A stretch of DNA of 14,149 bases, from NCBI GenBank assembly GCA_030668875.1, contig DAOVER010000067.1, forward strand, positions 1 through 14,149, read 5' to 3'. A program made the position numbers and the translations under genes. Positions within the stretch are counted from its first letter, which is position 1, and each line of letters opens with the position of its first letter. Below the pieces are notes generated by a model that was not told the DNA's origin, did no database searches, and saw only the letters and a list, made by a program, of their open reading frames with translations. This stretch comes from Candidatus Heimdallarchaeota archaeon (GTDB lineage Archaea; Asgardarchaeota; Heimdallarchaeia; Heimdallarchaeales; Heimdallarchaeaceae). This document shows positions 8,794 to 11,057 of the stretch, piece after piece.

Positions 8794-9918
8794 ATGGCTA
8801 TAGCATCTATTACTGCACTTGTCTTACTTATTGTAACAGTTCTTTTTATTGGATTTGCTATATTTTCATTTATTAGAGCATTTTTGATAACAAGAAATGC
8901 AGCATATTTGCATATAGGTATTGGAATAGTCTTAGGTTTCTTTGCGGGTATATTTTCAAGTATAGCTAACTTCTATCCTAATGAGGAGATTTACAAGGGA
9001 ACTGTATTAATTTTTATCATCATTACAAACATCTGTTTCTCACTTTCACTTTTTTCAATTTTTAATGGTCTAATTTTCATCCGAGAAGATAAATTACCGA
9101 TTTTTTCTTATATTGCTGCACTTATGATAGGTGCTGCAACTGCTTTAATAACAAAAATAAATACAGGAAATCTCGATTATGATAATATCTATGCTGTCTG
9201 GAAAGTTGATTACTTATTATCTGACTTACAGATTTCCTTTGTGATTATATTAATTATCGGTCAAATAATATTCTTAACATATCTCATACTATATTTAATC
9301 AGGAAAAGCCAAAAAATTAGGAATATCAAAAACCTTGATATTGGTTTCATAGCCATCTTTTGTTTAGCGATATGGATGATTACACCTTTCCTCAATGAGA
9401 TTAGTGCATTTAGATTTTTCCTATTTCCAATATCGTTAGGTCTGTTAGGGTTAGCTGTGTTCTTAGATCCTTTAAACTTGCTAGTTACAAATATATTACC
9501 TTCAGAAATCACTCTGGTAACAAAACATAGACAACCAGTAATCAGATACAATTTTCAGAACAATGAGATTGATAGAAACATCGATGAAATTCGATTACTT
9601 ATCGCTGGAAAAAAAGTCATTTCTGATTCTGTTAAAGCAGATGAAACCCCCAGCGATCTAATAATGAAAAATAGAGAAGTTAAAATCATAGATCTACAAA
9701 ATTTCTATGTTATTTCTGTAGGTATAAAAATAAATAGTAATGTTGTTTCAGCAATAAAAACCGCCTTCAGAGATTTTGAATCAGAGACAGATTTAGATTA
9801 CGTCTCATCATCTTCAATACTAAATGAATCAGATGAAACTCTGTTCACCAATATATTCGCAGAGCATTTGAAGAGAATTGATGGAAGAAAGAATGTCAAA
9901 ATTTCTTCTGAAAACTAA
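8794..9918 (+). CDS. 7-TM membrane protein with C-terminal longin-like domain, paralogue 1 (374 aa from ATG; the track starts at TTG 8779)
   Basis: Seven hydrophobic helices counted, then about 140 soluble residues with a longin-like beta-beta-alpha-beta-beta-beta-alpha-alpha pattern (EITLVT, VIRYNF, IDEIRLLIAGKKVISDSV, DLIM, EVKIID, YVISVG, NVVSAIKTAFRDF, ETLFTNIFAEHL). Confidence 0.85.
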   Translation: MAIASITALVLLIVTVLFIGFAIFSFIRAFLITRNAAYLHIGIGIVLGFFAGIFSSIANFYPNEEIYKGTVLIFIIITNICFSLSLFSIFNGLIFIREDKLPIFSYIAALMIGAATALITKINTGNLDYDNIYAVWKVDYLLSDLQISFVIILIIGQIIFLTYLILYLIRKSQKIRNIKNLDIGFIAIFCLAIWMITPFLNEISAFRFFLFPISLGLLGLAVFLDPLNLLVTNILPSEITLVTKHRQPVIRYNFQNNEIDRNIDEIRLLIAGKKVISDSVKADETPSDLIMKNREVKIIDLQNFYVISVGIKINSNVVSAIKTAFRDFESETDLDYVSSSSILNESDETLFTNIFAEHLKRIDGRKNVKISSEN

Positions 9919-9937
9919 TGAAACCAATTTTGACAAA

Positions 9938-9950
9938 TAGATTTAATAAA
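9938..9950 (+). promoter_or_regulatory. Putative internal promoter of 7TM-longin gene 2
   Basis: TAGATTTAATAAA; shares TAGATTTAA with the element before paralogue 1. Confidence 0.45.
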
Positions 9951-9977
9951 AGGTAAATTATTTGAAAGTTGATTAGA

Positions 9978-11057
9978 ATGCAAATTCCAGCACTACTACT
10001 TATGATTGAAACCTTTTTATTAGTTGGATACTCTATTTTTGCATTCATCCAAGCAATAAGGGTAACAAAAAATGTTGCTTATATGCACATCTTAGCAGGA
10101 GTAGTTTTTGGCCTAGTCACAAACATATGCATAAGTGCAGCAAGTTTCTATACTGTTGCAAGCAACCTAGTGGTAACGTTCATAATTATTGCAAATGTAT
10201 TCATCAGTTTATCATTTCTTTCTATTTTTACAGGATTAATCTTGATAAGAGAAGACAGATTACCAATCTTCTCTTACATAGCTGCTCTTATTGTTGGAGC
10301 TACAATGATTTTTTCTACCGATATGGATCCCAGTCTACTCCACTATGATTTTAACGCTATTTGGTCTGTCGAATATGACCAAGTCATGATACCAATAATG
10401 ACAGCAATTTCTTCTTTAATCTTATTCACATATTTCGTTTTATATTCAATCAGAAAAATTAGAAAAATGAAAAACAATCAGAGAATAGATCTAAGCCTTT
10501 TAGCATTTTTATTATTAATATTCTGGATTATTACAGCTTTTGTTAATTCTATGAAGGTAGTTAGAATGTTTGTTCTTCCCATAGTTTTCTTTTTACTTGG
10601 CTTAACACTTACAGGTAATCCTCTAAGTTTGTTAGTAACAACCATTCTTCCTGAAGAGATAATTCTAGTAAGCAGGTTTAGTCAACCTCTAATAAAGCTA
10701 GATTTGAGAGAAAGCAAGATTGGTAGGGAGTTAGAAGAAGTTAAATTACTCTTAGCTGGAGAAAAAGTTATTTCTGAAAGTTTGAAATCTATTGAAACAC
10801 CAAAGACACTTAAGATGAAAGCTAAAGAAATCAAGATCGTGAATATAGGAAACTTCAGCTGCTTAGTAATAGGGAGAAAAGTGGATAAAAATTGTATTTC
10901 TGCAACTTATACGGCCTTTCGAGAATTCAATAGTAAAACAAATTTAGAGTATCTGGAATCTGCTTCTGTACTCACTGAAAAGGATGAAAAATTGTTTTTG
11001 GAAATTTTCTTGGATAACTTCAAACGAATAGATGCAACAACAAGAGTCGAAATCTAA
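9978..11057 (+). CDS. 7-TM membrane protein with C-terminal longin-like domain, paralogue 2 (359 aa from ATG; the track starts at TTG 9969)
   Basis: Collinear with paralogue 1: T[RK]NxAYxHI, IREDxLPIFSYIAAL, LLVTxILPxEIxLV, ExxLLxAGxKVISxSxK, TAFRxF, KRID. Confidence 0.85.
   Translation: MQIPALLLMIETFLLVGYSIFAFIQAIRVTKNVAYMHILAGVVFGLVTNICISAASFYTVASNLVVTFIIIANVFISLSFLSIFTGLILIREDRLPIFSYIAALIVGATMIFSTDMDPSLLHYDFNAIWSVEYDQVMIPIMTAISSLILFTYFVLYSIRKIRKMKNNQRIDLSLLAFLLLIFWIITAFVNSMKVVRMFVLPIVFFLLGLTLTGNPLSLLVTTILPEEIILVSRFSQPLIKLDLRESKIGRELEEVKLLLAGEKVISESLKSIETPKTLKMKAKEIKIVNIGNFSCLVIGRKVDKNCISATYTAFREFNSKTNLEYLESASVLTEKDEKLFLEIFLDNFKRIDATTRVEI

Follow-up and report, generated by a model that had tools for sequence, protein, structure and literature searches.

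Tandem genes of a Heimdallarchaeal contig belong to an Asgard-wide family of seven-helix membrane proteins with a predicted cytoplasmic longin domain

The window analysed here is a stretch of 14,149 bp that makes up an entire contig (C4) of a Candidatus Heimdallarchaeota genome bin (3.2 Mb, 92% complete). It carries two adjacent genes, A and B, whose products join a seven-helix membrane domain to a C-terminal domain that is predicted to adopt the longin fold, which in eukaryotes serves for the docking of small GTPase switches. The two genes arose by recent duplication within a family of integral membrane proteins that spans the Asgard archaea and is near-universal in them. Their domain architecture is a real new one built from known parts, for which a mechanism can be suggested. 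The reading preferred here, which is held tentatively, is that the family provides a platform of cytoplasmic longin dimers at the membrane that would dock or regulate a small GTPase; both GTPase binding and sensing by the seven helices are putative parts of this reading.

Genes A and B

The main features of the two genes, all on the + strand of the window, are as follows.

8794..9918, +, gene A (upstream paralogue): open reading frame (ORF) with ATG start, 374 amino acids, seven transmembrane (TM) helices plus C-terminal longin
9978..11057, +, gene B: ORF with ATG start, 359 amino acids, architecture as in gene A
8806..9468, +, seven-helix membrane domain of gene A: residues 5-225, N-terminus outside, from hydropathy, model and charge
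9981-10619, +, seven-helix domain of gene B: residues ~2-214, from homology to A and hydropathy
9499..9876, +, longin-fold domain of gene A: residues 236-361, cytoplasmic, from the tail model (pLDDT, the predicted local distance difference test, of 80) and structural matches
10650-11027, +, longin domain of gene B: residues ~225-350, from homology to A
9073..9099, +, cytoplasmic loop after TM3 of gene A: residues 94-102 (I-x-I-R-E-D-K-L-P), best-conserved part of the protein
9586..9675, +, predicted dimer interface of gene A: helix alpha1 and strand beta3, residues ~265-294, from complex prediction

A preliminary description of this DNA, made from its sequence, had called A and B adjacent paralogues, each with seven TM helices followed by a tail and with conserved blocks in both parts, and the analysis bears this out. 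Two co-oriented ORFs occupy exactly the interval 8794-11057 and are 45% identical end to end (full-length alignment, E 1e-106). Seven TM helices and a C-terminal tail of about 130 amino acids were recovered in each protein by hydropathy and in a model of A, and an alignment of 20 sequences contained conserved blocks in the membrane part as well as in the tail. Orthologues of gene A with 70-85% identity were found in Heimdallarchaeaceae metagenome bins, and close homologues of the two genes carry the labels Candidatus Heimdallarchaeaceae or Heimdallarchaeota and originate from marine sediment. The ratio of nonsynonymous to synonymous substitution rates (dN/dS) was 0.24-0.26 for A against its orthologues and 0.30 for B against its own, which indicates purifying selection on both genes. 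Therefore A and B are not a chance pair of ORFs. No Pfam family matched either protein at E up to 1.

The seven-helix membrane domain

Hydropathy analysis gave seven hydrophobic segments per protein, alike in A and B. An AlphaFold model of full-length A, computed with 20 homologues, reached a pLDDT of 80 and a predicted template modelling score of 0.79; it contains helices at residues 2-33, 36-58, 65-97, 102-120, 146-178, 183-199 and 201-224, and a beta-hairpin in the TM4-TM5 loop. In the 20 homologues, the number of Lys and Arg residues averages 9.6 in the loops taken to be inside and 2.2 in those taken to be outside, so that the N-terminus is placed out and the C-terminus in. This positive-inside charge puts the tail in the cytoplasm, where the preliminary description had supposed it to be.

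In an exhaustive structural search with the whole A model, the 50 best matches were almost all G protein-coupled receptors (GPCRs), drawn from classes A, B and C and the adhesion receptors. Their scores (Z 15.0-11.9, ~190-230 residues aligned, root mean square deviation 3.2-5.9) lie inside the helical-bundle background, for which the stated figures with helical models are a best Z of ~14 and, at rank 50, a Z of up to 13. The best Foldseek E for the seven-helix part was only 0.011. Because of this E and a Z within the helical background, no claim of homology to GPCRs is made, and the predicted bundle is described as a GPCR-like helix arrangement. Pfam gave no 7tm family (7tm_1, 7tm_2, 7tm_3, Frizzled or others) for A or B, while one of 44 relatives reached E 0.013 to 7tm_3. 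Likewise, no transporter or enzyme family of Pfam was matched by the bundle in A, B or the 44 relatives. A microbial rhodopsin was also considered; it was ruled out by TM7, which is without the retinal-binding lysine, and in fact without any lysine, in both A (residues 205-225) and B.

Conservation is strongest on the cytoplasmic side. The loop after TM3 has a mean column entropy of 0.35 bits, against 1.0-2.1 elsewhere, and is 78% identical between A and B; I94, I96, E98, L101 and P102 are invariant in the 20 sequences, and its D-x-L-P persists in the consensus of a wider alignment of 44 sequences that includes distant relatives. Next in conservation are helix alpha1 of the tail (0.82 bits) and the linker after TM7 (0.89 bits). 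Variability is greatest in the three outer loops (1.6-2.1 bits, 20-40% identity between A and B). In the 44-sequence alignment G113 is invariant, and N79 (TM3), K171, W194 (TM6), R207 and P226 are near-invariant. R207 is a conserved arginine at the outer end of TM7, contrary to the positive-inside trend, and its position hints at a functional pocket.

The longin tail

The preliminary description had likened the tail to a longin domain, and the predicted structure matches that fold, both in an exhaustive structural comparison (Z up to 9.9) and in Foldseek (best E 8e-4, with almost entirely longin proteins returned). In the A model the tail contains strands at residues 238-243 and 248-253, a short strand at 258-260, a helix at 264-279, strands at 288-291, 294-300 and 304-310, and helices at 315-331, 335-340 and 345-361. 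Modelling the tail by itself gave the same order of elements, which agrees with solved longin domains (strand-strand-helix-strand-strand-strand-helix-helix, with helices enclosing a five-stranded sheet). Each chain has one longin domain of ~125 residues, and protein A ends 13 residues past it; A thus holds a single domain and not three consecutive longin domains per subunit.

When the tail model was compared with 48,161 representative chains by VIA-align, nearly all of the top 40 were longin domains. These matches comprised ~40 different entries at Z 9.9-6.3, with ~104-129 residues aligned to a query that is itself a predicted model. The scores were 9.9 for CPLANE (7q3d_C), 9.4 for the SRX domain of SR-alpha (2go5_1), 9.3 for AP-4 mu, 9.2 for TRAPP (3cue_A), 8.9 for VAMP7, 8.5 for Sec22, 8.3 for Mon1-Ccz1, 7.4 for BLOC-3, 7.1 for a Lokiarchaeal longin (8yqg), 7.0 for FLCN, 6.8 for Lst4, 6.6 for DENND1A and 6.1 for C9orf72-SMCR8; AP mu/sigma and TRAPP Bet5/Trs23 were also among the structural matches. 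Many of the top matches are subunits of GTPase regulators or partners, namely CPLANE, SRX, TRAPP, Mon1-Ccz1, BLOC-3, FLCN, Lst4, DENN and C9orf72-SMCR8. Roadblock proteins scored lower (Z 5.5-6.2, ~85 residues aligned). Roadblock/LC7 domains have a helix ahead of the first strand and at most one C-terminal helix. This class was rejected for the tail, whose first element, right behind the TM7 linker, is a strand and which is closed by three helices.

Sequence comparison gave fainter signals. In A, B and the 44 relatives, no Pfam family passed its threshold, the longin-fold models Longin, Sybindin, Sedlin_N, Fuz_longin_1 and Clat_adaptor_s included. Fuz_longin_1 was matched below the Pfam threshold in 3 of the 44 family members (best E 0.013). 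A search of the PDB with the tail profile gave as its best match the C-terminal half of Rab11/Rab4 (E 0.09-0.33), which was taken as chance because the tail has no P-loop and shows a longin rather than a GTPase fold in the model.

Predicted dimerisation of the tails

Complex prediction with the A and B tails gave an interaction prediction score from aligned errors (ipSAE) of 0.73, against 0.01 for the best control. Among reference cases, 58 of 80 solved complexes attained that mark, as did 2 of 110 mismatched pairs; these counts hold only roughly here, because custom alignments were supplied. Three runs agreed in at least 96% of contacts, with a partner pLDDT of at least 85. Solved longin and roadblock dimers exist, and the score may partly reflect likeness to them. 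The predicted interface is symmetric, with alpha1 (~265-280) on alpha1 and beta3 (~282-294) on beta3 (tail residues 34-63), and it involves alpha1, the element of the tail with the strongest conservation. The two-fold axis of the predicted dimer passes through the near-invariant G272, and the tightest predicted contact is between two equivalent Gly positions, residue 41 in the A tail and residue 38 in the B tail. The tails are thus predicted to dimerise via alpha1 and beta3, the usual longin/roadblock mode, with A/B, A/A and B/B dimers left undistinguished. Hetero- and homodimers are not separable in this way because close cousins of the true partner also pass the complex prediction.

Range of the family

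Of 1.84 billion proteins searched, a narrow family profile brought out no more than 49 representative clusters, and almost all of these are 340-385 amino acids long. In the ESM Atlas, three clusters of the same overall shape were found (template modelling score 0.64-0.73 over ~330-345 residues); they have 79, 134 and 70 members, are 93-100% archaeal, and Promethearchaeota is their commonest phylum. A wider profile, built from the distant matches, was matched in 351 of 399 Asgard genomes and in 85 of the 89 high-quality ones. Most of the matches listed were full-length, in open frames of ~360-400 amino acids, and many genomes hold several copies. In the genome of the window, this profile found a third, distant full-length member (C39:41308-42504). 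When the wider alignment was used in a protein search by word index, the close family alone came up, which gives no measure of the range. The narrow profile, run against the same genome for stand-alone relatives of the seven-helix part or of the tail, gave nothing below E 0.3, and its best weak matches there were rejected as unrelated soluble proteins.

No paper describing a fusion of seven TM helices to a longin domain was found in a literature coverage that is incomplete and does not extend to supplementary tables. Liu et al. count 130 roadblock/longin asCOGs in Asgard archaea, with longin domains in many lineage-specific fusions and NPRL2-like longin domains fused to two-component signalling domains (bioRxiv 10.1101/2020.10.19.343400). 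Tran et al. (2024) cover soluble roadblock and longin proteins and GTPase fusions (PMC10933270). A 2026 preprint on structural clusters common to Asgard archaea and eukaryotes lists seven-helix or GPCR-like clusters apart from longins (PMC13734099).

A possible platform for small GTPases

Under the docking reading put forward at the outset, each protein would consist of a seven-helix bundle with its N-terminus outside, followed by a cytoplasmic longin domain that pairs through alpha1 and beta3 as a homodimer or an A/B heterodimer. The dimer would form a platform held against the inner face of the membrane. Most likely, it would act as a docking site or regulator for one of the ~40 Arf-, Rab- or Rag-like small GTPases encoded elsewhere, and the conserved cytoplasmic loops could relay the conformational state of the bundle to it. 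Besides the architecture, the longin fold, the predicted dimer, the pattern of conservation, purifying selection and the wide Asgard range, this reading draws on two links to GTPase biology: the match of the wider profile to the C-terminal domain of an Arf/Rag-like GTPase and to other longin proteins of this genome, given below, and the number of GTPases there. The genome contains ~40 Arf- and Ras/Rab-like small GTPase genes, none of which is on the window contig. Because no GTPase gene lies near the pair, the coupling to a GTPase is inferred from the fold alone. According to Tran et al., Asgard GTPases are rarely found in operons with roadblock or longin genes (PMC10933270).

Several observations weigh against a GTPase platform. 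In 16 loci from 13 genomes, no small GTPase adjoins the family members, nor does one share the window contig; the GTPase beside the tandem pair of genus g5 belongs to the DRG-type housekeeping proteins and contains MMR_HSR1 and TGS domains. A comparison by hhalign of the narrow tail alignment with the C-terminal domain of an Arf/Rag-like GTPase, described below, gave a probability of 0.2% and no support. None of the 44 family members has a Pfam longin or roadblock match over threshold, the GPCR-like score of the bundle falls inside the background of helical proteins, and every structure used here is a prediction. Moreover, longin domains also work without GTPases, in SNARE regulation and as adaptor sigma and mu subunits.

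This last point leads to a rather unlikely alternative in which no GTPase is involved: the seven helices would themselves be a channel, transporter or sensor, and the longin domain would serve for dimerisation or for another cytoplasmic partner. The lack of a genomic link to a GTPase speaks for it, as do the longins of AP sigma/mu, zeta/delta-COP, Sec22 and VAMP7, which are among the best matches of the tail (Z 8-9.3) and which bind peptides or coat subunits and catalyse no nucleotide exchange. The NPRL2-like longins that Asgard archaea fuse to two-component domains (bioRxiv 10.1101/2020.10.19.343400) also fit. However, the bundle matches no transporter or enzyme in Pfam, its nearest shapes are receptors and not transporters, and TM7 is without a retinal lysine. 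In addition, it is the cytoplasmic surface that is best conserved, in keeping with coupling to a partner in the cytoplasm.

Duplication history and the A/B pair

The preliminary description had proposed an A/B heterodimeric receptor that couples an extracellular ligand directly to a GTPase switch. It was assessed here as an obligate heterodimer, in which the ligand would directly drive guanine nucleotide exchange factor or GTPase-activating protein (GAP) activity of the paired tails on a small GTPase. Several findings favour it: mutual binding of the tails is predicted, purifying selection has kept both copies, three genera of this family have tandem pairs, and the outer loops are where A and B diverge most (20-40% identity), as for a split in ligand specificity. 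The history of the genes nevertheless makes such a receptor quite improbable.

The narrow profile detected the gene in 17 of the 29 further genomes that belong to the same family-level group, and only copies A and B in the genome of the window. A maximum-likelihood tree placed the A clade as sister to the B clade within genus g1 (support 99), with the single-copy genes of three other g1 genomes (G018, G019 and G038) branching outside them. The tandem pair of genus g5 (G015 and G016) is its own sister pair (support 100), and the pair in G014 may be a third independent duplication. Placing all upstream copies in one clade cost 315 log-likelihood units and was rejected by the approximately unbiased test at p 4e-58, for groups that were named after the tree was seen. 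Pairs of the A/B type also occur in G023, G030 and two NCBI assemblies, and several close relatives have a single copy only. Because the A/B and g5 pairs arose separately, tandem duplication took place at least twice and the single gene is ancestral.

Further evidence came from a JGI metagenome contig that is syntenic with window 1027-9918. In place of a pair it carries a single intact gene of 370 amino acids (P0009, L038:6001-7113), with the same neighbours as in the window, namely an alpha/beta hydrolase, Dus and the PNPOx-like gene. Up to alignment column 280 P0009 is A-like (74-90% to A), and from there it is B-like (75-82% to B); the junction falls within the conserved alpha1 stretch. Unequal recombination has probably collapsed the pair into one hybrid, which thus substitutes for both genes at this locus.

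One gene is thus the ancestral and still common state, and hence a homo-oligomer or a monomer is suggested. A homo-oligomer is favoured, and the duplicates may or may not pair with each other as well. An obligate A/B heterodimer is unlikely. What stood of the proposed heterodimer is the confidently predicted dimer of the tails; its obligate nature did not, given a young and lineage-specific duplication, the separate g5 pair, the common single-copy relatives and the hybrid. Moreover, the interface residues show no consistent complementarity between A and B, complex prediction does not tell hetero- from homodimers, and neither a GTPase partner nor a ligand came to light, the variable outer loops being the one feature that speaks to a ligand. 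A charge pairing of Lys (A) with Glu (B) after G272 was considered as evidence for a heterodimer and was dropped, as it is not kept in other B orthologues.

Two disrupted copies were also seen among the relatives. In the complete g5 genome G016 (L022:7156-10971), the upstream copy is split into parts of 306 and 70 amino acids by a 445-amino-acid ORF, which has no match in the sister genome G015 and may be a mobile-element insertion. The family gene of G011 (C44:84316-85405; L027:8814-9695) has in-frame stops, with three TAA in the main match and more in a 5' piece, and looks like a pseudogene.

Distant matches of the tail

In the genome of the window (G000), the wider profile also matched the C-terminal domain of an Arf/Rag-like GTPase (C71:33959-34945, E 6e-8), whose N-terminal half is Arf by Pfam. 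The tail portion of this profile further matched six proteins of ~680-700 amino acids and stand-alone proteins of ~170 amino acids. Two of the former (C19:6245-8281 and C85:4802-6838), scanned with Pfam, join TPR repeats to a C-terminal longin-like domain. Below the Pfam threshold, a stand-alone protein and a TPR-longin protein matched Fuz_longin_1, and another stand-alone protein matched Robl_LC7. With the narrow tail alignment, hhalign gave a probability of 3.7% against a stand-alone longin and no support. The links of the tail to the GTPase domain, the TPR-longins and the stand-alone proteins come from the wider profile only and are moderately supported.

The match to a GTPase domain bears on the possibility of a passive, Ragulator-like anchor, in which the longin dimer stacks with the C-terminal domains of Rag-like GTPases and the seven helices sense nothing. 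This is hard to credit: the matched gene does adjoin a second GTPase of the same build, like RagA/RagC, and eukaryotic Rag dimers are tethered to Ragulator by roadblock-on-roadblock stacking (see also PMC10933270), but the narrow tail profile gave no support in hhalign (0.2%), no gene neighbourhood joins the family to Rag-like GTPases, and a plain anchor needs neither seven helices nor the near-invariant polar residues N79, W194 and R207.

The locus C71:33175-36010 itself holds two adjacent Arf/Rag-like GTPases of 354 and 329 amino acids with C-terminal extensions, followed on the same strand by a 264-amino-acid protein. The extension of the 329-amino-acid GTPase is the one that matches the wider longin profile, and the layout recalls the RagA/RagC pair. 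The membrane protein beside these GTPases was examined as a relative of the family and rejected, since by motif it looks like an undecaprenyl-diphosphatase. No separate seven-helix and longin genes related to the family were found beside the GTPases of this genome. The six longer proteins are encoded at C19:6245-10383 (two in tandem), C85:4802-6838, C29:107716-109731, C88:8559-10631 and C23:71259-73331.

Upstream elements and neighbouring genes

Near-identical AT-rich elements precede A and B, ~27-32 nt before each ATG.

8747..8774, +, TATA-like AT-rich element before gene A: TTGACA, 7 nt, TAGATTTAAAAATGG; centred ~27 nt before the ATG
9930..9953, +, TATA-like element before gene B: TTGACA, 2 nt, TAGATTTAATAAAAGG; starts 12 nt past the A stop

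Read from the sequence, the matching elements suggest that the duplication carried its own putative promoter and that A and B could each be transcribed alone. No RNA run is listed for the window DNA among public runs; the DNA runs that contain it are marine sediment metagenomes and may be the source sample itself.

Over the same 16 loci, the only kept neighbour was a geranylgeranyl-reductase-like protein of the flavin adenine dinucleotide (FAD) type, within genus g1 alone.

Window 6572-7831; L025:6823-8160; L039:6653-7912; L040:5249-6508: geranylgeranyl-reductase-like FAD protein, neighbour kept within g1
Window 8066-8578: PNPOx-like gene, between the FAD protein and gene A

Downstream of B, after 151 nt, lies a gene of 583 amino acids (window 11209-12960) without a Pfam match, which by Atlas features goes with asparagine-synthase-like clusters (score 0.98). 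It was rejected as part of the system because it is not a conserved neighbour of the A/B pair. In one relative, ~7 kb upstream of its A/B pair (L039:185-1237), a protein of 350 amino acids has a precomputed Pfam match to SMCR8_C, whose members come from longin-DENN GAP complexes of eukaryotes. This protein has no counterpart in the window.

Implications

A bolder version of the docking platform can be considered, although it is doubtful. A and B would be one-chain receptors without a known counterpart elsewhere, in which a GPCR-shaped sensor, by way of its conserved cytoplasmic loops, switches the fused longin dimer to load, unload or release a specific small GTPase. If this were true, a direct connection from membrane sensing to switches of the Arf, Rab or Rag type would already have existed in Asgard archaea ahead of the rise of eukaryotes. 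Asgard genomes encode dozens of small GTPases and more than 100 longin/roadblock families. By its own account, the field is unable to match these GTPases to their regulators, because the two seldom share operons (PMC10933270). A membrane-fixed longin platform in nearly every sampled Asgard genome is a testable candidate for the placement and control of GTPases at membranes, a question that bears directly on how membrane traffic and nutrient signalling originated in eukaryotes. As small soluble domains, the tails are easily expressed, and the recurrent duplicates together with the natural hybrid suit a comparison of homo- and heterodimers.

Comparison with known systems

The eukaryotic tri-longin complexes (Mon1-Ccz1, Fuzzy-Inturned and HPS1-HPS4) share the fold of the A and B tails, and the predicted pairing of the tails likewise uses alpha1 and the sheet edge. 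However, these complexes have three longins per subunit and are soluble and recruited to membranes, whereas A and B have one longin fused to an integral seven-helix domain.

The longin and roadblock proteins of the Asgard archaea belong to the same phylum and fold; the A tail reaches Z 7.1 to a Lokiarchaeal Roadblock-Longin protein (8yqg_B) and 5.6 to a Prometheoarchaeum roadblock. In the portions available, the papers on Asgard archaea describe soluble proteins and fusions to a GTPase, to TRAPPC3/V4R or to two-component domains, in contrast to the fusion to seven helices in A and B, of which those portions of Liu et al. and Tran et al. make no mention. Like A and B, the Asgard regulators rarely pair with GTPases in operons (Tran et al., PMC10933270).

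The roadblock dimers of MglB and Ragulator are GTPase-binding dimeric platforms of the same wider superfamily, and the dimer mode predicted for A and B is similar. Roadblock domains have an N-terminal helix before the first strand and are without the two C-terminal helices, and the A tail differs on both counts. MglB and Ragulator are soluble or lipid-anchored, whereas A and B are integral to the membrane.

GPCRs of classes A and C have the same N-out/C-in topology of seven helices as A and B. The nearest shapes among them are MRGPRD (Z 15.0) and two GABA-B chains (14.9 and 13.9), at values inside the background of helical bundles. GABA-B is a heterodimer of two paralogous seven-helix chains, and is thus like A and B in being made of paired paralogues. 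Moreover, TM3 of A and B has a conserved charged motif at its cytoplasmic end, the place of DRY in class A receptors. However, there is no sequence similarity, and GPCRs signal via a heterotrimeric G protein, whereas the output module of A and B would be the fused longin domain.

Finally, the SRX domain of SR-alpha, at Z 9.4 to the A tail, is a longin-fold domain that binds an Arf-like GTPase, SR-beta, at the membrane. SRX is N-terminal on a soluble protein without seven helices, and the anchor is on its GTPase partner, whereas the tails of A and B follow their own seven-helix domain at the C-terminal end.

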